This document shows positions 3 through 46,807 of a stretch of 64,000 nucleotides of DNA, piece by piece. The stretch is taken from the NCBI GenBank assembly GCA_902761345.1, contig CACWKD010000005.1, positions 15,892 to 79,891 of the forward strand, given 5' to 3'. The translations under genes were made by a program, and so were the position numbers. How positions within the stretch are numbered: position 1 is the stretch's first letter; every line of letters starts with the position of its first letter. Below the pieces are notes generated by a model that saw only the letters and a program-made list of their open reading frames with translations, ran no database searches and was not told the DNA's origin. The DNA comes from an uncultured Ruminococcus sp. (lineage in GTDB: Bacteria; Bacillota; Clostridia; Oscillospirales; Acutalibacteraceae).

Positions 3-1601
3 CTTTACAACACAGATGAACTTCGTCAGGAGCTTATCCGCTGCGGTTATGAATTTAAAGGACATTCCGACACAGAGGTACTTTTAAAAAGCTACATACA
101 CCACGGTACGGAATGCGTCAAACAGCTAAACGGTATATTCTCATTCGCTATTTATGACGGACGTGATGAGAGTGTTTTTATCGCAAGAGATCCCATAGGT
201 GTAAAGCCGTTTTTCTATTACAAATATAACGGCGGTCTGCTTGCGGCGTCCGAGATAAAAGCCCTTCTCGCAAACCCTATTGTCAAACCTCAGATAGACG
301 AACAGGGGCTTATGGAGCTGTTTTTTATAGGACCGGGCAAAACAGGCGGACAGGGGATTTTCAAAAATGTAGGAGAGCTTTTGCCGGGTGAGTGCGGTAT
401 CTACAAGGACGGCACACTTAAAAAACAGCGATACTTTACAATAAAGGCTCGCCCTCACACTGACAACAGAGAACAGACTAAGGAACACGTACGTTACCTG
501 TTGACAGACGCTATTGAAAGACAGCTTGTAAGCGATGTGCCGCTGTGTACGTTTTTGTCGGGCGGTCTTGATTCAAGCATTATTTCAAACACCGCCGCAA
601 ATTATTACAAGAGAAAAAATCTCCCTCTGCACACCTACTCCGTAAATTATGTTGATAACAAAAAGTATTTTCAGAAAAGCCTGTTCCAGCCTAATTCCGA
701 TGAAGAATTTATTGATATTATGGTACGTCACACAGGCTCTGATCACCACGAGGTAATACTTGACAACACCGATTTGTACAACGCATTATTCGACGCTGTA
801 AACGCAAGAGATCTGCCGGGTATGGTTGACGTTGACTCATCTCTTTTACTTTTTTGCAGAGAAGTAAAAAAAGATTTTACAGTCGCTTTGTCGGGAGAAT
901 GCGCAGATGAGCTTTTCGGCGGTTATCCTTGGTATCATAACGAACAGATACTCTTCGAGGAGTGTTTCCCGTGGTCACGCTCACAGGCTGTACGCAGGAG
1001 TATTCTGAAAAGCGGAGTTCTTCCAAAGGGCGAGGAATACGTAAGACAGCGTTAGCTCGACACTGTAAACCGCACGGACTGCCTGCCCGAGGACAACAGG
1101 CATACAAGGCGAATGCGTGAGATGTTTATGCTCAACTTTAACTGGTTTATGCAGACGCTTCTCGACAGAAAAGACCGCTGTTCAATGTATGAAAGCTTAG
1201 AGGTAAGAGTACCGTTCTGCGATTACAGAATAGTGGAATATGCGTACAATATGCCGTGGGAGCTTAAAGCGCTTGACGGCAGAGAAAAGGGCATAGTTAG
1301 GGCGGCTTTTTCGGATCATTTGCCCGAAGCTATCACTTGGCGAAAGAAAAGCCCCTACCCGAAAACGCACAATCCTTTATACTTTGAGCTTGCAAGCCGC
1401 GGCGCGTTAAAGGTAATCGAAAACAAAACCTCGCCCCTATCGGAATATTTGAACGGAGCAGGTATCAGGGAGATCATCAGAAACCCCGAAGAAATATCCT
1501 CGCCGTGGTACGGTCAGCTAATGCGTGCCCCTCAGATCCTCGCCTACATCGCACAGCTTGATTACTGGTTTACTAAGTATGGAGTTGAGGTTGTTTGTTA
1601 G
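3..1601 (+). pseudogene. asnB: Asparagine synthase (glutamine-hydrolysing). The 5' end lies outside the window and the reading frame is interrupted by one in-frame TAG at 1053-1055.
   Basis: Frame 3 is open from position 3 and gives GHSDTEVLL, RDPIGVKPFFY and the PP-loop FLSGGLDSS. After the TAG the same frame continues with LNFNWFMQTLLDRKDRCSMYESLEVRVPFCDYRIVEY. ORFs 312..1055 and 1113..1601 share a frame, and the TAG is the only stop between them. Confidence 0.8.
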
Positions 1602-1897
1602 TTCAAAGTTCAAAGCTTATAGTTTAAAGTTGAGGGGAATTCAAACTTTGGGCTAACAGCTAACAACTAATGACTAACAACATAGAAATCCAAAGCCGCA
1701 GGCTTTCCGATATTATTCATTATTCATTCTTCATTATTCACTATTCATTACTTCCGTGTGGAGTCTTTTTGAATTAGGAGTGAGGAATGGGTTGTTAGTT
1801 CAAAGTTCAAAGTTCAAAGCTTATAGTTTAAAGTTGAGGGGAATTCAAACTTTGGGCTAACAACTAACAGCTAACAACTTACAACTAATAACTAACC
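1592..1897 (+). repeat. Composite intergenic repeat made of tandem heptamers. Two direct copies of about 90-105 bp (1592-1680 and 1791-1897) flank a central segment.
   Basis: GTTGTTAGTTCAAAGTTCAAAG..CTTATAGTTTAAAGTTGAGGGGAATTCAAACTTTGGGCTAACA.. occurs twice. The centre contains AAATCCAAAGCCGCAGGCTTTCCGATATTATTCATTATTCATT. Tandem 7-mers TTCAAAG, CTAACAA/G and TTCATTA are visible. Related copies lie at 11245-11516 and 14614-14843, with an inverted copy at 45958-46135. Confidence 0.85.
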
Positions 1898-1971: not shown

Positions 1972-3605
1972 TAATTAGTCTTTGCTCAGCAATCCCACAC
2001 AAAAATCAAGGATAGATTTCTCTCTCCAACATAAAAGGCAGACAAAAGCCAAAGCAAAAGCTCCCTCGCAATGTTTCGGAGGTTCATTGCGAGAATTGAG
2101 AGCATAATCGATGAGCGGGTCGTGATATCGAGCTTGGTACAGATAAGCCCCATTCCAAAGCAGCGCTTTGCGAGACTGAAACCTCTCTCGACTTCAATAC
2201 GATCCGTGTTATCCTGATGTGCGGTTTTGAGTTCTTCCGATGACGGGTTCTTCTTTGGACGTCCCAGGGGCGTGCCGGAAATTCGGATATTCTTGCTTTT
2301 GCAGAAAGCGATGTTTTTACGATTGCGGTAGATCTGATCTACAAGAACTCTCTCCGGATAATGCCCGGTTCTTTTGCGGTAATTCTCAATCGCCGTGATC
2401 AGCACATCGGCTTCATTGTAAGCGTCAAACGAAAGTTTTTCCAGACGTGCAATTCCTCTTTCGTCAATGCTCATATCGAGCTTTGCTCCGAACTCGACAG
2501 GTGCTTTTGCTTTGCCTCTGACGATTGGGCGAATATAGGGCTGAGATATGCTTACAATGCGGTCCTTTACACTGTGAACTCTGTTGTCGTACATGTATTT
2601 CTGCTGCTCGTAAAGCTCGGTGATAACGCTCAAACGCTGCTGCTGTTTATCGGTCAGAACGACATTGTTGTACAGAACAAACATATCGATATAGCCAAGA
2701 TCACGGCTGATATATCCGAGTTGTTTCCCGATTGCTTTGCGAACTCTTTTTGCTGTACGCTTTTTGCATTTTGCGAGAGCGAGATAATCTTTTCTTGCCT
2801 TTTGACGATACATACGAGGCTTGTAAAAGTTGTAATCACAGCATATCTGATCAATAATAGATTCAAGATTCTCTCTTGCCTCATTGAGCAGATTGATGTC
2901 CTGCGGATATGCGATATTCTGCGGTGCGCAGGTCGCATCAAGGATCAGAGTACCTTTGTTTTCAGATTCTGTTGATCCGGCTTGGTCCGCATTGGTCGTT
3001 TCCGTATTCCCACTGTCACCGCTGTTGCTGTTATCGGAATCTCCGTCCGTCGGGTCATCGGGAGCGTTATACGCAGCAATCATCTCATTGATCTCAGCCA
3101 AGACCTCCTCGTTGAGACGCTTGCGAAACTCAACAAGCAGAGATGGCGCAAATGGTGCTTTATATTCATATCCGGGAAGTCCTATGAAATATTGATAATA
3201 CGGGTTTTCCTTGATCTGCTCGACCAATTCGCGATCGGAGTATTTGTATTCTTTCTGAATAAGCAAACATCCCAATGCCATTTGCAAGGGCTTGGCGGGC
3301 ATTCCTACCTCACTCGGAAACAATGTCGCATAGCGGTCTTCAATTTCGTTCCATGGTATCAGAGCTGCTTTCTTTACCCATCTGTTTTCGCTGCTCATTT
3401 CCATTCCCAACGGCTGATTGAAGTCGCTGAAACTGAATTGATGATTCCTGTCGAATTTATACATATCCGTCTTCCCTCCAAGTGCAAGGTTTTTGCTCTG
3501 TTTGGTTATTTTTCCTTGCACTTATTATACCATGTTATGACTAAAAATGATACTGTTTATCGGGGATTTCTGGGGTATCGAAGGTATTGAAGCAGACACT
3601 AATTA
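1972..3605 (-). mobile_element. Insertion sequence, IS1182/IS5-superfamily-like, about 1.6 kb
   Basis: A single large DDE transposase ORF is flanked by imperfect terminal inverted repeats. The left end is TAATTAGTCTTTGCT (from 1972). The right end, read as reverse complement from 3605, is TAATTAGTGTCTGCT, matching at 13 of 15 positions. I could not determine a target-site duplication. Confidence 0.6.
1986..3521 (-). CDS. DDE transposase (IS1182/IS5-like, with an InsH-type N-terminal domain). The real start is probably the internal MYKFDRN near 3464.
   Basis: The 511-aa ORF carries an N-terminal FSFSDFNQPLGMEMSSENRWVKKAALIPWNEIEDRY..LQMALGCLLIQKEYKYSDRELVEQIKENPYYQYFIGL, which is typical of this transposase group. 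The C-terminal part RIEVERGFSLAKRCFGMGLI is also typical. Confidence 0.85.
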   Translation of the reverse strand: MQGKITKQSKNLALGGKTDMYKFDRNHQFSFSDFNQPLGMEMSSENRWVKKAALIPWNEIEDRYATLFPSEVGMPAKPLQMALGCLLIQKEYKYSDRELVEQIKENPYYQYFIGLPGYEYKAPFAPSLLVEFRKRLNEEVLAEINEMIAAYNAPDDPTDGDSDNSNSGDSGNTETTNADQAGSTESENKGTLILDATCAPQNIAYPQDINLLNEARENLESIIDQICCDYNFYKPRMYRQKARKDYLALAKCKKRTAKRVRKAIGKQLGYISRDLGYIDMFVLYNNVVLTDKQQQRLSVITELYEQQKYMYDNRVHSVKDRIVSISQPYIRPIVRGKAKAPVEFGAKLDMSIDERGIARLEKLSFDAYNEADVLITAIENYRKRTGHYPERVLVDQIYRNRKNIAFCKSKNIRISGTPLGRPKKNPSSEELKTAHQDNTDRIEVERGFSLAKRCFGMGLICTKLDITTRSSIMLSILAMNLRNIARELLLWLLSAFYVGERNLSLIFVWDC

Positions 3606-3670: not shown

Positions 3671-5392
3671 ATGAAAACAGGCAGAAAATTGTTAGCTGTT
3701 CTTATGGCTGTAACTATGCTTATGTCGAGCGTGTACATTACCGCTGCCGCCGATATGACGCTTGTAACAGTCAACCCCTATTGGAAACCCGAAGGGCAAG
3801 ACCGTTTCACGCTCGAGGGAGCGTATTACGATTTGCAGCCCGATACATCGGATACCCCCGAAATGCCCGATGTGCTTAAAAACCGCAAACCCAAGCACCA
3901 CGTTTTCGAGAGAAAAGAAGACCATATGCTAAATTTGCGTGATGAGCTTATTATGCCGGGCGATACCTTTGAGATACCGAACGATATTACACGGGATATG
4001 ATCTACACTGTGGATTGGTACGGCAGAGGAAACACACCTTCCCCCGATGAAAATCTGAGCATGGCGCTTTGCCCCGAAAAATACGGTATCGAAGTCACAG
4101 GCTCTGTCGATATTATAGGATATGACGACTTTGACTCGGGCGACGGTATAAGCCTTGACGGAAACCACTTCACAGACAAGTTTATCCGAACCGGAAAAAA
4201 CAACCTCAACTGCCCGATAGTAATACGCGCCACAGGAGGCGGCGGTGACGGTCCGTATGTGTACTATGATGACCACACTCAACGCAGACAGCACACAGAT
4301 ATTTGCTACGATGTTTACGCACCGTTCTATCACATCTACTATCACTTTATTGACGAACCCTCCGAATCTCCCGATTATGAGAGAATTTCATATGAAGGCT
4401 TTGAGGATTTCTTGAGGTATCGCATAAATGACCAAAAAACTCTTTTCTGGTCTTTGGGTGAATTTGAGGAGCTTGATTTCCCCGAATATTACTGGCTCAC
4501 GGACGAACCCTATACAATAAGCGTACCCAATCCCATACGAGAGGGAACTCATTTCTCCGTTTGGAACGGCGGAGGTGTTAACGGCGTTGGAGATATGAGC
4601 GAGGCTCATCAGGAAGTCTTTGCCGATCACACCGAATTGTCTGTAAGGTGGGTATGGGAATTCCCGAATATTGACGATATGCTTATTGATGAACTTGACC
4701 ATTATTACAGCGATATAAATTTTTATACTGCGGGCGATATAATTATGTCCCCCGGATTAGGCGGCAATCAGAGAACTATATATTTAGACCCAAACGGCGG
4801 TACTATTAACGGACGTGACAAATTTATAATAGCCGCAAACGAAGTCAAGCGTGAGGACGAGGCAAAGTACGGCGAAAACGGCGACAGCAGAATCCCCGAT
4901 GACGGCGACTTCGGATTTGATATTAACGACTATATCCCCGAAAAGCCCGGAGATACTTTTCTCGGCTGGTGTGCCAAAGAGAACGCTCTTTACTCAAGCT
5001 TTGTAACAAAAGACTCAACTATCGAAGCGTACCGCTATTTTTGGGAGGACGACGAATACGGCACTTATACCGACAAATTCTGCGAACAGCGTCTTTACGC
5101 AAAATGGGCAAGTCAAACAGATGAAGCCTTAGAGAAAAACGGCTGGAAGCTTACAGATGACGGTACTCTTTTCATTATTGATGACGAGGGTGCGGAAAAC
5201 TGGGTAAAGGCACTGAAAGCAGACCCAAACCTTGCACCTAAAGTAAAGGACGTTAAATTGGGATATAAGGGCGAAAATGTTCAGAATTTACCTGCTAAAT
5301 TCCTTGACGGCTGTACCGGTGTCACAGAGCTTGTTTTTGACGAGCCTGTAAAATGGACCCTGGACGGAGAGTACGCTCCACGTACCCGATGA
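3671..5392 (+). CDS. Secreted protein with a signal peptide and a Listeria-Bacteroides type repeat. Probably the N-terminal part of one gene that continues in 5418..6665.
   Basis: Signal peptide MKTGRKLLAVLMAVTMLMSSVYITAAAD. The Flg_new-like pattern is IYLDPNGGTINGRD...PEKPGDTFLGWCAKEN...RLYAKWA. The start is preceded by ACGAGGTGA. Confidence 0.75.
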   Translation: MKTGRKLLAVLMAVTMLMSSVYITAAADMTLVTVNPYWKPEGQDRFTLEGAYYDLQPDTSDTPEMPDVLKNRKPKHHVFERKEDHMLNLRDELIMPGDTFEIPNDITRDMIYTVDWYGRGNTPSPDENLSMALCPEKYGIEVTGSVDIIGYDDFDSGDGISLDGNHFTDKFIRTGKNNLNCPIVIRATGGGGDGPYVYYDDHTQRRQHTDICYDVYAPFYHIYYHFIDEPSESPDYERISYEGFEDFLRYRINDQKTLFWSLGEFEELDFPEYYWLTDEPYTISVPNPIREGTHFSVWNGGGVNGVGDMSEAHQEVFADHTELSVRWVWEFPNIDDMLIDELDHYYSDINFYTAGDIIMSPGLGGNQRTIYLDPNGGTINGRDKFIIAANEVKREDEAKYGENGDSRIPDDGDFGFDINDYIPEKPGDTFLGWCAKENALYSSFVTKDSTIEAYRYFWEDDEYGTYTDKFCEQRLYAKWASQTDEALEKNGWKLTDDGTLFIIDDEGAENWVKALKADPNLAPKVKDVKLGYKGENVQNLPAKFLDGCTGVTELVFDEPVKWTLDGEYAPRTR

Positions 5393-5417: not shown

Positions 5418-6665
5418 TTGGGTGAATATGCTTATCTTCTCGAAAAACCGAACGCTCAGCGTTATCCGCTAACCGTAAACGGCACTATTATCACAGATGA
5501 TAATTTAGAGATAACGTGCGGCGACGGTACGGCAAAATTCAATCCTGATACAAACACCTTAACTCTTACAAACGCAACACTTACAAACAGCCTTAATCCG
5601 CATTACGCAAACCACTATTACGTTGACGATTCTACTCCCGATACTCCAAGCGATTATGAAAACTATAACAATTATGCTATCGTATCACATCTTGATAAAC
5701 TCACTGTTGTTATAGAGGGCGAAGTCACGGTAAACACAGTAGTTGACAACGCCTACGGTTCAACTCACGAGGAGCTGCCGAATTTCATCTATACCGAAGG
5801 CGATCTGGAGCTTACGGGCAGCGGTACTCTGAAAGCCGTTAAAAACGATACTTCATTATACTACAAGGATAATGAAACTATGGAACTGCGAGAATATATC
5901 GGTCCCGGACAGGTAAAGGCTCGGATAAACGGAGATCTCACCGTAACCGACTTAACAACAGAAAGACTGTATGCTAATGTTATGGGCAGCTTTAACGGTG
6001 AAAACGCAAAAATGTACGGCGGTTTGATAAATGCTCAAGGAGATGTTAACGCCGATAATCTTACCGTCAAGGACTTCAACGCACCCGAGGGCGATCTGAT
6101 GCTCGCTCAAGAGATCGCTTATATAATCTCATACGGAAAAAGCAGTATGAATTTCAATAACTGCGATTGCGAGTATACCGTTATCCAAGGCATTAACCAA
6201 TGCGAAGAAATAAACATTACCAACAGTAAAATGTCACTTTCAGGCAGTCTTGAGGGCGGAGATAATACAGTGCTTAATATTGATAACTCCGATATCTTTA
6301 TCAGTGCGGGAATGAATGATTACGGACCCCAAAATTCTATTGTAAACATTGCCCCCGAGAACATCACTATTACAAACGCATATATTGCGGGCGGTAACTT
6401 GACAGACGTTTTCCTCGTGATAAAGCCCGAGGAAAATCAGACAGCAGGACTTTTGGGCGATGTAAACGGCGATAACAAGGTTACGGCTAAGGACAGTTTA
6501 GTCATACAAAGATTTGTTATCAGTTCCGCGCAATTGGACGATCATCAGCAAAAGCTTGCAGACGTTGACTCAAACGGTAAAGTTACAAACGCAGACGCTC
6601 TGCATATTCTCAGATACACCATTAATGCCAATGATAAATATCCGATAGGACAAACGCTTGCATAA
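5418..6665 (+). CDS. Dockerin-bearing protein fragment with no signal peptide of its own. Probably the C-terminal part of the 3671..5392 gene, separated from it by a frameshift.
   Basis: C-terminal dockerin GDVNGDNKVTAKDSLVIQRFVISSAQLDDHQQKLADVDSNGKVTNADALHILRYTI. This frame is already open from 5352 and overlaps the end of the upstream ORF. The annotated start is TTG. Confidence 0.7.
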   Translation: MGEYAYLLEKPNAQRYPLTVNGTIITDDNLEITCGDGTAKFNPDTNTLTLTNATLTNSLNPHYANHYYVDDSTPDTPSDYENYNNYAIVSHLDKLTVVIEGEVTVNTVVDNAYGSTHEELPNFIYTEGDLELTGSGTLKAVKNDTSLYYKDNETMELREYIGPGQVKARINGDLTVTDLTTERLYANVMGSFNGENAKMYGGLINAQGDVNADNLTVKDFNAPEGDLMLAQEIAYIISYGKSSMNFNNCDCEYTVIQGINQCEEINITNSKMSLSGSLEGGDNTVLNIDNSDIFISAGMNDYGPQNSIVNIAPENITITNAYIAGGNLTDVFLVIKPEENQTAGLLGDVNGDNKVTAKDSLVIQRFVISSAQLDDHQQKLADVDSNGKVTNADALHILRYTINANDKYPIGQTLA

Positions 6666-9600: not shown

Positions 9601-9915
9601 CAGAATATCCCCACTGCACCCATAGTTCCCGATACTTCAACAGATACGTCAACAGACACTTCAACAGATTCCTCAACAGATACCGAAACAATAGAATACC
9701 TCGGCGATGTAAACGGTGATAATAAAGTTACGGCTAAGGACAGTATGCAGGTACAGAGATTTGTTATAAATCTTGCCAAACTTGACGAAAACCAAAAGAA
9801 GCTTGCAGACGTTGACGGTAACGGAAAAGTTACCAACGCAGACGCTTTGAGTATTCTGAGATACACTATTAAAGCAAATGTAAAATATCCTATCGGACAG
9901 GAAGTTACAGATTAA
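6700..9915 (+). CDS. Secreted BspA-type leucine-rich-repeat protein with Thr/Asp-rich linkers and a C-terminal dockerin
   Basis: RBS AAGGAGA. Signal peptide [24 protein letters not shown]. There are three blocks of LRR_5-like repeats ([49 protein letters not shown]). Linkers look like [14 protein letters not shown]. The dockerin is [56 protein letters not shown]. Confidence 0.85.
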   Translation: [1071 protein letters not shown]

Positions 9916-11125: not shown

Positions 11126-11244
11126 TTTCTACACTCCTTTTTTGATTTTAATAATCCTTATATTAATTAGACACAGCACCCTGCGTTTTTTTCGCAGTAA
11201 TTTTTTTATATTTTTATATTTTTATAAATATCAAAATAAAACTT

Positions 11245-11516
<272 letters not shown>

Positions 11517-11550: not shown

Positions 11551-11569
11551 TAATTGTAAATAGTTATTA

Positions 11570-12792
11570 TTAATCTTCCTGCTCTTCACCTATGGAATAC
11601 TTTACATTCTGATTAACCGTGTATCTCAATATACTCATAGCGTCTGCATTTGTCACCTTACCGTTACCGTCAACGTCTGCTAACTGTTTTTGCGTATCAT
11701 CAAGATTTGAAAGATTAACAGCATATCTCTGAATAAGCATACTGTCCTTAGCGGTTGCCTTGCTGTCGCCGTTTATGTCGCCGAGGTACTTTTTACTCGG
11801 CTTTTTCTCGTCCTTATTATCCTTAGACGCATCGTCAACAGTTTTAATTTCACTCGGGTTGTAATCTGTAATTACCTCGATAGTAATATCCTCAGAGATA
11901 CCGATCACCTCGTAAACACCGTTGCCGAAGTAGTTCATATGATCGTATTCGCCGTCAAAGTTAAACTTAGTAAGACCATTGGTGCTGTCCTCGATCTTAA
12001 ACTTGATCGCTCCGTCACCGTCACCATAGATCTCCTTACTCTTATCGATCCAAGTAAGCTCTCCTACCTCGGGATCGCCGATATTCTCTTCATCAACCTT
12101 GTTGCCCTTGCTATCTACGAAGTAGCCGTCTGATTCTACCCATACAGAAGGCGCTTTGTATGAATCAACGCTGAAACCGTCTTCTACTTGTACACCGTCA
12201 ACCTCTACATATGCGCCGTTTGTAACAAAGGTTACACTGTATACGCCTTCATTTTCGCCCTGTTCTGCTGATGTTAATGTTTCGTCGGAAGCTACATCAT
12301 CGCCGATCTCTTCGTCCTCATCACCGTGCAAACCATAATAATCAAATATTTCTACGGTAATATTCTCGGAGATACCCAAAATCTTATAGTTACCGTCACC
12401 ATCGTAACCCATATAGTCGTAATCACCGTCGATTTTAAATCCGGGATTACCCTCTTCAAGGTGGAACACAACAGCACCGTCGCCGTCACCGTGGATTTCC
12501 TTATCGTTATCTACCCAGGAAATAGGAGCTTTCTCCGGATTGCCCAACTCATCATCGGAGCTTTTGTTGAAACAACTGTTTCGCCGTCTGCAACCGTTTT
12601 GCCGTTGTACTCCACATTTACACCGTTAGTGATAAAAGTAACGTTGTAACCCTCTACCTGCACAACCTGTCCTTCCGAATACTGACCCTCTTCAGCCTCC
12701 AATGCTTTAGCCGTTACTGTCGGGTATACTGCCTATAACAACATACAGCATACAAGCACCTTGGAAATCATTTTCTTCATTTCTTTGCTCAT
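11570..12792 (-). pseudogene. Decayed dockerin-bearing secreted repeat protein
   Basis: The N-terminus MSKEMKKMISKVLVCCMLL is followed by an in-frame TAG at 12733-12735. A 1-nt frameshift near 12548-12560 separates ORF 12511..12702 from ORF 11570..12547. There is an internal duplicated module (..WVDNDKEIHGDGDGAVVF.. and ..WIDKSKEIYGDGDGAIKF..). The C-terminal dockerin is [56 protein letters not shown]. Confidence 0.75.
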
Positions 12793-14601: not shown

Positions 14602-14613
14602 TAGAATAATTTC

Positions 14614-14843
14614 ATAGTAAACGTCATAGAAAAGATCCTATTGTACTTTAGTGGTTAGTATGCTACAGATCAAAGTTATTAGTTCAAAGTTCAAAGACTT
14701 AAACTTAACAAAATATAAATTTAAAGCCGAACGGCTTTCCGCTATTATTCACTATTCATTATTCAATCTTCATTATTCATTAATTCTAATTTCAAAATTG
14801 TACATTAGGTCAAAAATTATGTCGTCAATTATAATACTAACTC
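14614..14843 (+). repeat. Copy of the heptamer-array intergenic repeat family
   Basis: ATAGTAAACGTCATAGAAAAG, TTCAAAGTTCAAAG, AAAGCCGAACGGCTTTCCGCTATTATTCACTATTCATTATTCAATCTTCATTATTCATTA, TACATTAGGTCAAAAATTATG. It is collinear with 11245-11516. Confidence 0.85.
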
Positions 14844-14877
14844 CAAAAAAATCCCCCTGCCCATACGGACAAGGGGA
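14844..14877 (-). terminator. Rho-independent terminator of tuf
   Basis: The minus strand reads CCCCTTGTCCGTATGGGCAGGGGGA followed by TTTTTTT. Confidence 0.8.
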
Positions 14878-14903
14878 ATTATTATGCAATTCTATGAAAG
14901 AAA

Positions 14904-23671: not shown

Positions 23672-24559
23672 ATGCCTATAAAAATTCCGAGTGACCTGCC
23701 CGCTGCAAAAGTTCTCGAACAGGAAAATGTTTTTGTAATGACAAACGAGCGCGCAAGCACACAGGATATACGTCCGCTGCAGCTCCTGCGACTTCTTGGA
23801 AACAGTCCCCTTCAAGTGGATATAGAATTTCTGCAAATGGCGTCGCACGTTTCAAAGAACACTCCGCAGGATCACCTGATGTCATTTTACAATGTCTTTG
23901 ACGATATTAAGCAGAATTTCTATGACGGTATGATTATAACGGGCGCGCCTGTGGAGCTGCTGAGTTTCAGCGAAGTCGATTACTGGGAAGAGCTTTGCAC
24001 AATAATGAAATGGAGTAAAAGAAATGTCTGTTCAACACTTCATATTTGTTGGGGCGCTCAGGCAGGACTTTACTATCATTACGGTGTTCCGAAATATACC
24101 TTTGACGAAAAGCTGTCGGGTGTGTATTCTCACCGTGTATTAAACTCAATGCACCCTCTTATGCGTGGAATAGACGATGTATTCTATCTCCCCCATTCGA
24201 GAAACACGGGAGTAAAAACCTCCGATATACAAAAGCACAGCCGTCTGGAAATACTCTCTTTGTCCGATGAGGCGGGAGCGTCGATCATTGCCGACAAAAA
24301 GGGCAGACAGTTCTTCATACTCGGTCACCCCGAATATGACCGTGAAACTCTTAAAAACGAGTTTTTCAGGGATTTAAACAAGGGTATAGACCCTAAGATC
24401 CCGAAAAACTATTTCCCCGAAAACAACACCGACAAAACGCCGATGATGAAATGGAAAAGCTATGCAAATCTTTTGTTTATAAACTGGCTCAATTACTTTG
24501 TTTATCAGAACACACCTTATAATCTCTCCGAAATAGCCGCAAGAGAAGAGCAGGTTTAG
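23672..24559 (+). CDS. metA: Homoserine O-acyltransferase MetA, with an apparent internal in-frame deletion of about 16 residues
   Basis: [37 protein letters not shown] (catalytic Cys), [25 protein letters not shown]. The conserved KILILNLMPKKIETE segment expected between DIRPL and LLRLLGN is absent. Confidence 0.85.
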
Positions 24560-35067: not shown

Positions 35068-38000
35068 TTAGTCTTCCTTGCGTCTGCGATATGCAAATGC
35101 ACAGATGAGTAATGCCGTAAGCATTGTTGCAGCGTATGCAAATGTATTTGTGCTGTCGCCCGTCTTTACAGGTTCTGCTGTCGAACCGCCCGACGGCTGC
35201 GGCAATGCTGTGTAGTTGTTTGTGTTATTGTTCGTATTGTTATTATTAGTATTGCTGTTGTTGTTTGTATTGTTGTTATTGTTTGTCTGTGTATCGGTAT
35301 CCTTATTTACTGTAACGCCCTGTATCTTTGTGTTATCGGTTGTTGTATCGGTATCAGTTTTTGTTTCTGTATCCGTTTCGGTCTCTGTTTCTGTTTCTAC
35401 CTCTGTTTCTGTCTCTGTCTCGGTCTCCGTTTCCGTTTCTACCTCAGATTCTGTCTCGGTCTCTGTCTCTGTTTCTACCTCTGTTTCGGTTTCTGTTTCT
35501 GTCTCCGTTTCTACCTCAGTTTCTGTTTCGGTCTCGGTCTCTGTCTCTGTTTCTACCTCTGTTTCAGTTTCGGTTTCTGTCTCTGTCTCTGTTTCTACCT
35601 CTGTTTCAGTTTCTGTTTCTGTCTCTGTCTCTGTTTCTACCTCTGTTTCAGTTTCTGTTTCTGTCTCTGTCTCTGTTTCTACCTCTGTTTCGATTTCGGT
35701 TTCTGTCTCTATCTCTGTTTCTACCTCTGTTTCAGTTTCGGTCTCTGTTTCTGTCTCTATCTCTACTTCGGATTCTGTTTCGGTCTCTGTCTCTACTTCG
35801 GATGCTGTTTCGGTTTCTGTCTCTGTCTCAGTTTCTACCTCTGTTTCGGTTTCGGTTTCTGCTTCTACTTCTGTGTAGTCTGTTTCCTCCTCTTCCGGCT
35901 CAGGCTGAGGTGGTATAATTATCGGCACTGATTTTTCATCGTTGTCGCTTACGTTACCCGATGCAGCTTCTACCGTACAAGGATACATATCCTGCGTTAC
36001 ATTTTCACTGTCTATTACTGTGGTAAATGTAAATGTTACCGATTCGCCCGGTTCCATTTTCGGGATAATCATTGTATTTTCGGTTGTTTTGTAATCTTCA
36101 TCAGCTTTAAATATACCGTTCAGGCTCTCTGTTACAACTACATTTACAAGCGTAACATCTCCGTTATTTGTTACCGTATCGGTCCATACAACTGTTTCGC
36201 CTATCGTGTAATCTCTGCTGTCAACCTCTTTTGTTACCTTGATCTTCGGATAAATTATTTTTGTATTTCCGTTATCTGTTGCTGTTACCGAGTCGCTTGA
36301 CGAATCCTTGTAATGCTCGCTTGCGGTTGCCGTTACTGTTGATTGGATCGTATCGTTTTCGATAATATTTTCAGTAGCCTTTACTACAAATACATATTCA
36401 TAGCTTTCGCCGGGTTCAAGCTCTGCAATTACAAAATGGTCTCCTCTAACAGTTACACCGTATGGGAGTTTGAAATAACCGTCGAGGTTTTCTTCAACCT
36501 TAATATTCGTTAATGTTGTCAAGCCTGTATTTGTAACTGTACTTGTAAACTCAACACTGTCATTTACTACGTGTACAGGTTTATCTACCGACTTGGTTAC
36601 TGTAATCTCATAATGAACTACTTCAACCGTTGCAGTATCGTCATCGGATACTTTCTCGTCTGATGTTGCGGTTACAAGATTTACAACCTTATTTACATCT
36701 GTAAGAGGTGCGTCTTTTGCGTTGATCGTGTATGTAAGAGTAACGCTGTCGCCTATATCGAGTACGTCTATAACAAACTGTCCTTTGTCGTTGATCGTGC
36801 CGTTCTCGTTTTCTGCGTATGCGCCTTTTTCGAAATTCTCCGCTACTACAACATTATGAAGCACACGGTTTCCTGTGTTGGTGACAACGTCTTTGTATAC
36901 TATATCTTCGATGTCGTCATATACTTCCTTGTCGGGTGTTGTGGTAACAGTTATCTGTGGGAATACGATCGCATATTCTACATCGTCCATTGCCTCAACT
37001 CTCTTCTCGGAGTTGGAAACTGCTGTTGTGTAAGAATATACATTAAAGTCATCGTCATGCTCTACGTCCGTAACCTTAATATAATATACAAGCGTTACGC
37101 TCTCGCCCGGGAGAAGTTTATCAATTACAAGAATGTTATTTTCTTCAACTGTTACAACCTTATCACCGTATTCGGAAGCTTCAAGATCAAACTCGCCTTT
37201 GTCGTTGTCCTCTGTTACAACTACATCATAAAGTATTCTGCCGCTTGTGTTTTCAATAACATTTGTGTACGTTACTGTATCTTCACCGTAGTATATGTCT
37301 TTGTCTGCTGTCTTTGTAATGTCTATATATACTGTGTGAACTGTACATTCATCGTCATCAGTTGCCTTTTCGGCTGTTGTTACATAAGCTGTATTAACAA
37401 GTTTGTTGTCCTCGGCATTGCTTGCAGGAGCACGGTATGTGAATGTATAGCTCTCGCCCGGTTTCAAGTCGGGGATTATAACCTCTGTACCCTTTGCGGT
37501 CATTTCGCCCTCAACAACGTCGTACTCGCCAAACACCGTCTGTGTAACTTTTACGTTTGTAAGGGTTACAGAACCTGTGTTTGTAACCGTTTCCGTATAT
37601 ACGACCGTTTCGTCCTCTTTATATACAGTATCGTCGGGAGAAATTGTTATATCTACAATAGGCACTTCAACAAATACAGTACACTCGTCGTCGTCGGTAA
37701 CTTCCTGAGCGGTCGTAACTTCTGCGCTGTTTGTTATCTCAAAGTTTTCTGCAATGCTTGCAGGAACTCTGTACAGAAGAGTATAGCTCTCGCCCGGCAT
37801 AAGGTCGGGAATAACAACGCTCTTGCCGTCAACGGTCATCTCGTCCTCAACAATATCGTACTTACCGTCTAAATCCTGTGTGACAGTTACGTTTGTGAGT
37901 TTTATATTGCCTACATTTGTAACTACTTCAGTATATACAACTGTTTCATCTTCATGATACACCGGCTGATCGGGCGTCATTGTAATTTCTACATCGGGAA

Positions 38001-45689: not shown

Positions 45690-45840
45690 ACGAACCTCCC
45701 GTGCAGATAAGTCCGACAGCCGCACAAGAGGTATCTATGTAGCAGCGGAATGCGGCAGCGAAATCGCAAGCATAGCTTTTCGTCCTTTGACAACTTCCTG
45801 TTCAAAAGGCACTTAACGCTTCGCAGCCTACTCTGCAATT
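45690..45840 (-). promoter_or_regulatory. THF (tetrahydrofolate) class I riboswitch with an SD-sequestering, terminator-like expression platform
   Basis: The minus-strand RNA reads GCAGAGUAGGCUGCGAAGCGUUAAGUGCCUUUUGAACAGGAAGUUGUCAAAGGACGAAAAGCUAUGCUUGCGAUUUCGCUGCCGCAUUCCGCUGC. It shares AGAGUAG, GCGUUAAGUG, ACGAA and GCAU.CCGCU, and the P1/P2/P3 pairing pattern, with the E. siraeum THF aptamer as I remember it. Downstream, the hairpin CCUCUUGUGC...GCACGGGAGG covers the SD and is followed by UUCGUUUUAUU and then the AUG. Confidence 0.85.
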
Positions 45841-45957
45841 TATTATTTATATTATCAGTATAGCACACTCCGACAAAATAATCAACGGATTACCATACAA
45901 CTATTTGAAGTACATTTTATTATTATTGTGGAAAAAGACAGTATCGTTCACTTTGTT

Positions 45958-46135
45958 TGCTCGATGAATAATGAATAACGAATAGTTAATAGTTCAAAGT
46001 TATTAGCTCAAAGTTTGCATCTCCCCACCAACTTTAAATTATATGCTTTGAGCTAACAACTCCATTCCTAACTCCTAATAAAAAAACTCCACACTCCACA
46101 CTCCACTCTCCAAATTCCGCACTTTAAAAAAAGCT
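45958..46135 (-). repeat. Inverted copy of the heptamer-array intergenic repeat family
   Basis: The reverse complement reads GTGTGGAGTTTTTTTATTAGGAGTTAGGAATGGAGTTGTTAGCTCAAAGCATATAATTTAAAGTTGGTGGGGAGATGCAAACTTTGAGCTAATAAC...CTATTCGTTATTCATTATTCATCG. This is collinear with 1757-1880. On the plus strand there is an extra CTCCACA tandem. Confidence 0.8.
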
Positions 46136-46171
46136 CCACACTTGAAAAAAATCTTGATTCCTTATTATACT

Positions 46172-46807
46172 TTAAAGTTTAGAGTAGCCGAAGCTGTTTA
46201 CTAATGCTTCTATCTTCTCGCCTTTCTGACAAATCGGGCATTGATGAGGTTTGTAACTCTCATAGTCGCCAAGGTCATTCGGGTCAAATATAGATACTAC
46301 GTCTTGTCCGTCGCATTCATCTACTGTGGAGAATATCGACGCAACTCCCGTTACTTTGCCGCCGTAATAATTTACAGCGTCCATTGCTGCCAGCACACTC
46401 TTTCCTGTTGTTACAGATGCTGCAAGAACAAGCACATTCTTGCCTGAAATCATTGGCACAAGATTATCTCTGAACATTATCTGTCCGCCTGATACAAGTT
46501 CGGGTGTTACAACATACATAGTCTGGTGTGCGTTCATATTGAGATAGTGGTCGCCTGTAAGCTCCTCTGCCATACAGGTTCCTACTACCTGCATACCGTC
46601 TATGCAAAGTATTGTGTCTATAATAGTATTTACACCATAATGCTTTGCTATCTCGCTTGCTACCGCCTTTGCTTCCGACAAACGCATCTTCTGTATAGTT
46701 ACATCTATAAAATAGTTTGTGTGTAAGTGCATTGTTGCAAAATGACCTTTCCTTACTCGAAGAAACACATCGGGGTTTTTCGTTCTGATTTTAAAAGCTT
46801 CTGACAT
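46172..46807 (-). CDS. Phosphoribosyltransferase-family protein (type I PRTase fold)
   Basis: PRPP-binding loop NVLVLAASVTTGKSV; 211 aa; C-terminal CPICQKG. RBS AGGTGA. Confidence 0.65.
   Translation of the reverse strand: MSEAFKIRTKNPDVFLRVRKGHFATMHLHTNYFIDVTIQKMRLSEAKAVASEIAKHYGVNTIIDTILCIDGMQVVGTCMAEELTGDHYLNMNAHQTMYVVTPELVSGGQIMFRDNLVPMISGKNVLVLAASVTTGKSVLAAMDAVNYYGGKVTGVASIFSTVDECDGQDVVSIFDPNDLGDYESYKPHQCPICQKGEKIEALVNSFGYSKL

Follow-up and report, generated by a model that had tools for sequence, protein, structure and literature searches.

To our knowledge, intergenic heptamer repeats have been catalogued for decades in cyanobacteria, Beggiatoaceae, Bacteroidetes and Xanthomonas without a mechanism being assigned to them. 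Among the described families, TAACTGA direct repeats occur in Beggiatoaceae, cyanobacteria and Bacteroidetes (MacGregor 2015, PMC4679880), and Xanthomonas has GGGAATC arrays and Nostoc GGGGA(C/T)T arrays (Rehm et al. 2015, PMC4692102). Assemblages that bring several heptamers together in intergenic DNA have been described in Calothrix and Nostoc (STRR), Microcystis, Beggiatoaceae, some Bacteroidetes and Xanthomonas (PMC4679880, PMC4692102). In the account of Mrazek et al. 2007 that these two papers relay, heptanucleotides are the most abundant class of 5-11-nt simple sequence repeats (SSRs), with polymerase slippage as their proposed origin. Here we analysed a 64-kb stretch of contig CACWKD010000005.1 from an uncultured Ruminococcus sp. 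(the whole stretch is called the window), in which tandem heptamer arrays and conserved unique blocks are assembled into an intergenic element present at several loci. The host region belongs to a cellulosome-bearing Clostridia bacterium, encodes dockerin proteins, a serpin and the str operon, and has EF-Tu cluster mates labelled Acutalibacteraceae.

Mosaic repeats are the second point of comparison. These include the E. coli BIME/REP, the pneumococcal BOX (boxA-boxB(n)-boxC), RUP, the Neisseria Correia elements and the Bacillus cereus bcr1-bcr18. RUP, Correia and bcr1 are miniature inverted-repeat transposable elements (MITEs) bounded by terminal inverted repeats (TIRs); REP are 20-40-nt imperfect palindromes with a conserved head of GTAG type and a link to the RAYT transposase; and the boxB units are 45 nt long.

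Our results support the existence of a real, dispersed and modular family of non-coding repeats, not of a local duplication. The original prediction, made from the letters of the window, had placed the element at four intergenic loci, the last of them inverted, and both the reading of these regions and the repeat search found it there. Period-7 arrays were called with Tandem Repeats Finder (TRF) and with a separate lag-7 detector, using first-order Markov simulations as the null. The lag-7 detector returned 11 arrays in the 64 kb, all 11 inside the four loci, compared to a simulated mean of 0.18 (maximum 2), so the predicted tandem heptamers stood. The TRF arrays, of 2.7-7.4 units, were likewise confined to the four loci, except for three trivial matches of 2-3 units within genes. 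They lie at 1600-1631, 1652-1670, 1712-1750, 1797-1835 and 1857-1896 in copy 1; at 11298-11349, 11359-11390 and 11425-11449 in copy 2; at 14670-14696 and 14744-14782 in copy 3; and at 45964-46006 and 46086-46123 in copy 4. The heptamer units are TTCAAAG/TTCTAAG, CTAACAA/G, TTATTCA and GTGTGGA.

Moreover, the arrays alternate with unique blocks that are conserved between loci, as had been proposed. The 28-nt block E (AAAGCCGCAGGCTTTCCGATATTATTCA) has exact copies at 1692 and 11405 and a diverged one at 14723, block A (ATAGTAAACGTCAT.GAAAAG) is present at 11245 and 14614, and block G (TTAGGAGT.AGGAATGG) at 1774 on the plus strand and 46062 on the minus strand; the chance expectation for each unique block is about zero matches. 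Alignment of the copies gave a module cycle of fixed order, G-B-C-D-E-F, with the A and H blocks restricted to copies 2 and 3. The copies measure 142-306 nt, are 77-94% identical to one another, and have all six frames closed by stops, in agreement with the claim that they are non-coding. Being shorter than 500 bp, non-coding and multi-copy, they fall in the size class of MITEs. Of the 18 intergenic gaps in the window that are 120 nt or longer, 4 contain the element.

Sequence beyond the window was read through the 122.7-kb rumen metagenome scaffold L029 (ENA ERZ28613103, STEW19-1 scaffold_133), of which the window is the reverse complement; in total, ~79 kb of this one scaffold (the 64-kb window plus flanks) were read for copies. 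A fifth copy (G-B-C-D) lies at L029:16229-16370, ~2.9 kb past window position 1, and fills the whole 142-nt spacer between the stops of the convergent yqfD and radical-SAM genes, where it is the sole hairpin, with no other hairpin or terminator. The element therefore occupies five loci in ~79 kb, four in the window and one outside, in unrelated contexts, and is not restricted to the four predicted sites by local duplication. Copy number was screened with nhmmer profiles of each module, which gave no further or degenerate copies in the window and the adjoining scaffold; no copy was present in the 6.6 kb past the opposite window end.

Copy 1 (1592-1897, plus strand) reads B-C-D-E-F-G-B-C-D, 1.5 periods of the full module cycle. 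It is placed after the asnB stop codon, which falls in its first bases as had been noted (TAG at 1599-1601, in the first TTGTTAG unit), and before the asnB intrinsic terminator (1898-1937). Its description as a direct duplication also held, since 1600-1681 and 1804-1885 repeat each other at a spacing of 204 nt, with 94% identity over 82 nt. Copy 2 (11236-11509, plus strand) is of type I, bounded by inverted repeats, and reads A-B-D-E-F-H, with terminal arms at 11236-11258 and 11487-11509, B at 11298-11349, D at 11359-11395, the E hairpin at 11405-11419 and F at 11426-11452. It stands between the terminator of a dockerin gene (11570-12547, minus strand) and the promoter region of the next minus-strand gene (unknown). 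Copy 3 (14606-14841, plus strand; fold z -3.26) is also of type I, with the same A-B-D-E-F-H order and a short D. Its terminal arms are at 14606-14628 and 14819-14841, with B at 14670-14696, the E hairpin at 14723-14738 and F at 14744-14786, and it separates the tuf terminator (14852-14877, minus strand) from the serpin promoter (14601-14573, minus strand).

Copy 4 (45925-46145), read on the minus strand, has the order G-B-C-D-F, with a G array of the GTGTGGAG type at 46056-46144, the B-C-D core hairpin at 45984-46061 and the F array at 45964-45985. It is an insertion of ~215 nt between a gene for a 211-aa phosphoribosyltransferase-like protein (46172-46807, minus strand) and the folE promoter with its tetrahydrofolate (THF) riboswitch. 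This riboswitch (Rfam RF01831, 85 bits; 45741-45837, minus strand), upstream of folE, is kept in relatives without the element. It was the sole match in Rfam at the gathering threshold, and the E-value mode on copies 1 and 2 returned noise (E of at least 0.44); no known RNA family thus matched the element. With respect to the genes around them, the orientation is forward in copies 1, 4 and 5 and reverse in copies 2 and 3, the latter being antisense to both neighbours. At all three loci that carry C (copies 1, 4 and 5), the C hairpin is in sense orientation, 0-30 nt past the upstream stop codon.

The original prediction had described the element as a set of several distinct heptamer arrays. The arrays are present, but they are not independent, since B and D are the two arms of a hairpin: B, (AGTTCAA)n, and D, (AACTAAC)n, are mutually inverted and pair, with block C between them, into a single long, imperfect hairpin. 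Helices of 4 bp (AGTT/AACT), one per pair of B and D units, alternate with internal loops of 3 nt, and a central 9-bp stem (AGYTCAAAG/CTTTGRGCT) lies near the loop. The B-C-D core is 80-100 nt long and ~85% identical among its four instances, and its consensus structure has 17 pairs, none of them broken. The U.G, C-G and U-A alternations in the central stem pair on the forward strand alone. When folded at full length, all four cores gave forward energies of -23.5 to -28.3 kcal/mol with z-scores of -3.0 to -4.7, and reverse z-scores of -2.4 to -4.3; the forward folds were more stable than the reverse ones by 5-12 kcal/mol.

Copy 1 carries two such cores on the plus strand. Core hairpin 1a (1595-1681; -28.3 kcal/mol, z -4.74) spans the whole core and is composed of a B arm at 1595-1629 (TTGTTAG, TTCAAAG twice, CTTATAG, TTTAAAG), the C stem-loop at 1626-1652 and a D arm at 1653-1681 (CTAACAG, CTAACAA, CTAATGA, CTAACAA). 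Core hairpin 1b (1792-1897; -25.1 kcal/mol, z -3.34) has B at 1792-1833, C at 1830-1856 and six D units at 1857-1897, and its inverted arms, 1789-1828 and 1862-1901, are 70% complementary over 40 nt. Between the two cores lie block E (1686-1712, plus strand; AAATCCAAAGCCGCAGGCTTTCCGATA), with a 6-bp GC hairpin (AAAGCC/GGCTTT) at 1692-1706, and array F (1713-1754, plus strand), made of six TTATTCA-type units (TRF period 7, 5.6 copies, 87%); for 1712-1754, TRF also gives a 21-nt period. Block E is weakly terminator-like on the minus strand, and its hairpin has a stem-breaking single-nucleotide polymorphism in assembly L031. Block G of this copy (1756-1791, plus strand; GTGTGGAGTCTTTTTGAATTAGGAGTGAGGAATGGG) is a partial, transition-diverged complement of array F, and the two may represent a second, degenerate complementary pair. 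We do not claim the F-G pairing as a third hairpin: the minimum free energy is suggestive and the z-score is just -1.8.

According to the original prediction, the element lacked terminal inverted repeats of the MITE type. This holds for copies 1, 4 and 5, where the internal B/D inverted arms are the only ones, but not for copies 2 and 3, in which blocks A and H form a terminal inverted repeat of ~45 nt located exactly at the limits of the homology between the two copies. These type I ends are of the form ATAGTAAACGTCAT...ATGACGTTTACTAT. In copy 2 the outer arms (11236-11258 and 11487-11509) are complementary at 18 of 23 positions (78% over 23 nt), and none of 2000 shuffles was as good (p<0.001); in copy 3, in the equal register, 15 of 23 positions pair (p about 0.04). 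The outer and inner helix together comprise 26 pairs in copy 2, of which copy 3 retains 22. The changes from copy 2 to copy 3 in A and H include one compensatory double change, T-A to C-G, and four one-sided changes that preserve pairing. Clear target-site duplications were not seen at copies 2 and 3, whose flanks are AT-rich. At copy 4, alignment with the empty sites showed that the flanks resemble each other weakly, these empty sites being highly diverged.

How does this element compare with those already described? The closest known kind are the heptamer assemblages of cyanobacteria and Beggiatoa. As in the STRR-like assemblages, short tandem arrays of 7-nt units occur in intergenic DNA only, with several unit types together in one spacer, and inverted arrangements are able to form stem-loops. 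As occurs in the Bacteroidetes (PMC4679880), an assemblage present in one genome is missing from the same spacer in close relatives. Our element differs in its host (Firmicutes/Clostridia, from the rumen), in its unit sequences, in its short arrays (2-7 units) set in a fixed order with the unique blocks C, E and A/H, and in the terminal inverted repeats of two copies. None of the units of the described families (STRR1-3, TAACTGA, GGGAATC, GGGGAYT) is present in the element arrays; those families mostly have a single unit type, and the TAACTGA arrays lie just upstream of start codons, unlike the arrays described here. The STRR-like kind is characterised by high genome-wide abundance (hundreds of sets); the count here covers ~79 kb of one scaffold. 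The long prokaryotic SSRs of Mrazek et al. 2007, as relayed by the two papers cited above, are isolated arrays, whereas those described here belong to a dispersed element of several modules that also has conserved unique sequence. A literature search of limited scope found no description of such elements in Firmicutes.

One BLASTN match led to a comparable structure. In the Pseudanabaena galeata plasmid NZ_CP112875.1 (L049:508-645), a spacer located between a terminator and the next start codon carries the undescribed arrays (TTTTAGC)4 and (CTAACAG)6, which form an in-register hairpin (z -7.7). CTAACAG is identical to one D unit and is the only unit in common; since the Pseudanabaena arrays pair in register, the principle of the hairpin architecture is shared with this cyanobacterial plasmid. 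With the BIME/REP, BOX, RUP, Correia and bcr elements, as generally described, the element shares a small, non-coding and intergenic nature, both orientations, a limited set of modules of which one varies in copy number, and stable hairpins, often co-transcribed in the 3' untranslated region (3' UTR), in a species- or genus-specific distribution. Set against those general descriptions, it shows no sequence likeness to any of them by eye. It further differs from BOX in that the variable modules are 7-nt microsatellites and not 45-nt boxB units; from REP in the absence of a GTAG-type head and of an associated RAYT or insertion sequence (IS) identified in the ~79 kb; and from the TIR-bounded MITEs in that only 2 of the 5 copies have TIRs.

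The nearest relatives have the same genes without the element at two of the loci, and at a third a different gene order with intergenic regions that also lack it. At the copy 4 site, the ~215 nt of the window correspond to just 12 nt in L048 (neighbouring protein 95% identical), and the element is also absent from L044-L047 (85% identical). In a species with ~90% nucleotide identity over the str operon (L020 and L021), the spacer downstream of tuf is plain, as are those that separate the paralogous dockerin and serpin genes. The copies that a search of related genomes might have brought to light were not found: none stood at the orthologous sites that were read, and the nhmmer profiles of all modules found nothing in ~90 kb of the relatives' DNA. 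The EF-Tu cluster mates (89-92% identity, too distant to serve as closer relatives) had no arrays at the two loci read. Taken at the level of these alignments, the comparison establishes that the copies entered intergenic DNA after the split from the nearest sampled relatives.

Searches of larger collections gave a similar picture. Pattern GGCTTTCCGNTATTATTCA had 16 matches in the genome collection, all in unrelated taxa and none in a relative, compared to ~17 expected by chance; pattern TTTCCGNTATTATTCAYTATTCA had one chance match in the metagenome collection, on an unrelated non-coding contig; and three patterns (C core, A block and E block) had 0, 1 and 2 matches in the viral collection, all attributable to chance. 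BLASTN against plasmids and phages gave short matches at the level of the arrays only. These searches support the view that the family is probably lineage-specific and not widespread. A TTCAAAG-like run ~87% identical to part of the B array was seen in Cronobacter phage GAP31 (L050:385-450; similar in PVP-SE1-like phages), in a spacer upstream of tRNA genes. These runs of Vequintavirinae phages do not fold (GAP31 z +0.3) and are probably due to chance. Separately, contigs of more distant relatives (L057:11360-11560 and L058:11360-11446) end soon after tuf in GC-rich, structured GGGGTTCTAAGGGGCAGCGAGTCTCGCC..., which looks like a different repeat family.

Within the population, two further assemblies (three in all) have copies 2 and 3 in identical form, and eight assemblies from different samples agree in the sequence of copy 4. 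The fact that the copies are identical in independent assemblies of different samples excludes an assembly artefact. Two Logan/ENA contigs have their start within copy 4, which is to be expected if it is a repeat in the genome; in one Logan contig, beginning within the G array, copy 4 lacks one unit at the contig end. The number of heptamers differs between copies, as the original prediction had stated, but the ongoing slippage that it proposed was not seen in the population, apart from this one possible loss of a unit. Copy 1 is polymorphic: the window, L031 and L032 have the 306-nt form, and L029 (STEW19) has a single core between asnB and its terminator and is 204 bp shorter. This indel has both end points within the directly repeated cores of copy 1, so that the short allele is most simply read as having lost 204 bp by recombination. 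Finally, a strain that is 99.3% identical over the str operon has unrelated sequence and another terminator right after the tuf stop (window 14852-14903 versus L022:10440-10551), and because of this divergence the serpin/dockerin block with copies 2 and 3 is placed in a strain-variable accessory region.

Several explanations of the family were weighed. That the loci arose by local segmental duplication with independent microsatellite growth, without any dispersed family, is largely refuted and, in our opinion, very improbable. Copies 2 and 3 are indeed just 3.3 kb apart among paralogous dockerin and serpin genes and exclusively share A and H, and nothing was found outside the host lineage; however, their flanking genes are not paralogous pairs (tuf/serpin versus dockerin/unknown), copies 1, 4 and 5 lie 10-45 kb off in unrelated contexts with 75-100-nt cores that are ~85% identical, plus blocks E and G, and convergent slippage cannot produce unique blocks of 20-35 nt. 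Only slightly better, and still quite improbable, is the idea of DNA-level sites for a protein, whether iteron-like, nucleoid-associated or regulatory for the accessory cellulosome and serpin genes. Three heptamers make two helical turns, TRF gives a 21-nt period at 1712-1754, and copies 2 and 3 are upstream of the promoters of secreted dockerin/serpin genes in the strain-variable region. Yet four or five unit sequences would demand several binding specificities, copies 1 and 5 lie at the 3' ends of genes that converge or are terminated, with no promoter there to be regulated, and the complementary-pair arrangement points to a hairpin or cruciform and not to a row of identical operators.

A structured RNA under selection has more in its favour, and we still regard it as unlikely. 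Here the element would be a 3'-UTR or leader module or a small RNA, whose heptamer-periodic hairpins and single-stranded arrays would serve as a platform for an RNA-binding protein (for example of the OB-fold/cold-shock type, with ~7 nt per monomer) or as a stabiliser or terminator of mRNA 3' ends. The central stem that pairs on the forward strand alone, the 5-12 kcal/mol advantage of the forward folds, the sense orientation of the three C hairpins close to a stop codon, the sole hairpin that copy 5 provides between convergent genes and the one compensatory change in the A/H stem are consistent with it. In addition, MacGregor 2015 (PMC4679880) proposed S1, Csp or CsrA-type binders for the TAACTGA arrays. 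Nevertheless, the forward-strand advantage is lost in the z-scores, since shuffled sequences rich in G+U fold well too; copies 2 and 3 run antisense to the gene on either side; consensus scans for a promoter or U-tract terminator belonging to the element stayed at background level; module content varies between copies, with no match in Rfam; and no conserved regulatory need is evident, the same sites being empty in relatives whose neighbouring proteins are 85-95% identical.

We favour, at somewhat better than even chances, a lineage-specific mosaic interspersed repeat of the MITE/BIME/BOX type, built from heptanucleotide microsatellite modules. Its presence in unrelated spacers, in both orientations and with empty orthologous sites in near relatives supports a species-specific mosaic repeat, as do the variable modules in fixed order, the hairpin arms, the TIRs of some copies and the recombination between copies; insertion, hairpins, inverted ends and the recombination indel are all observed. 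Such an element is probably selfish, its hairpins becoming part of 3' UTRs. In this mosaic repeat, the copies bounded by inverted repeats would be moved in trans by a transposase whose gene lies in another part of the genome, and partial module sets would spread and be reshuffled by recombination or template switching between copies. Replication slippage may lengthen and shorten the arrays, and the inverted arrangement could be maintained if changes in one arm are copied from, or selected against, the opposite arm. The effect on the host would be mostly selfish or neutral, with co-transcription with the upstream gene as a by-product. By lying right after stop codons, the core of copies 1, 4 and 5 would place a stable hairpin and stops in all frames in the 3' UTR, features that could, like REP/BIME elements, act as a buffer against read-through and delay degradation by 3' exonucleases.

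Some of our results do not sit well with a mobile mosaic repeat. Neither a transposase with matching ends nor a target-site duplication was identified in the sequence read, given the AT-rich flanks and empty sites that are too diverged. Transposition cannot explain all of the dispersal, because 3 of the 5 copies are without TIRs; nor is a very recent burst indicated, since the copies are 77-94% identical to each other. The copy count rests on 5 loci in ~79 kb of one scaffold. Moreover, the forward-only G.U pairs, together with the position of the core copies immediately behind stop codons, suggest that selection may act on an RNA, which a purely selfish model does not predict.

Other features of the region were also recorded. 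An IS at 1972-3605 (1634 bp, DDE_Tnp_1_2 plus DUF772, with ends TAATTAGT.T.TGCT) adjoins the terminator that follows copy 1, and identical copies are present in L030 and L033-L035. We rejected a link between this IS and the element, the IS ends (TAATTAGT...) being unrelated and identical IS copies elsewhere having no adjoining element. The asnB gene (312-1601) is split into two open reading frames (ORFs) in the window and in L029 and is an intact 611-aa gene in L031, a frameshift/pseudogene polymorphism. The element as the source of the asnB C-terminus was also rejected: homologues end in ...VE(I/V)V like the window protein, and therefore just one extra Cys and the stop codon derive from the element. 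At window position 5355-5371 a dockerin gene has 95 nt fewer than in L017, another assembly of this strain, with ORFs at 3671-5392 and 5418-6665 in place of the single 1029-aa gene of L029. Three paralogous segments of ~200 nt with 70-79% identity (6456-6652, 9703-9899 and 11563-11788) are the dockerin modules of three neighbouring genes. At 23779 the homoserine O-succinyltransferase (HTS) gene has 48 nt fewer than in L017, L019 and L022, likewise assemblies of this strain. A long coding tandem repeat at 35254-35886, with periods of 6, 42 and 78 nt, is part of a large minus-strand gene and resembles a Thr/Glu/Pro-rich linker of surface proteins.

If the family is merely selfish DNA, it adds one more species-specific repeat family. 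It is a long shot that the in-register hairpins with heptamer arms, present in this rumen Firmicute and in the cyanobacterial plasmid, are a selected, convergent architecture, recognised at 7-nt steps by a specific protein, either an OB-fold/cold-shock-type RNA binder or a dedicated mobilising enzyme; if true, the element would represent a novel kind of module, post-transcriptional or mobile, and not passive microsatellite clutter. In practical terms, heptamer elements break metagenome assemblies, as seen in the contigs that start inside copy 4, and mark strain-variable regions in rumen metagenome-assembled genomes. The family adds a Firmicute example that reveals more of how such repeats work than the cases described so far, with complementary hairpin arms, a fixed order with unique blocks, transposon-like ends on some copies, and insertions that can be dated against near relatives. 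Because this Firmicute family combines these properties, the origin and spread of heptamer assemblages become more testable.

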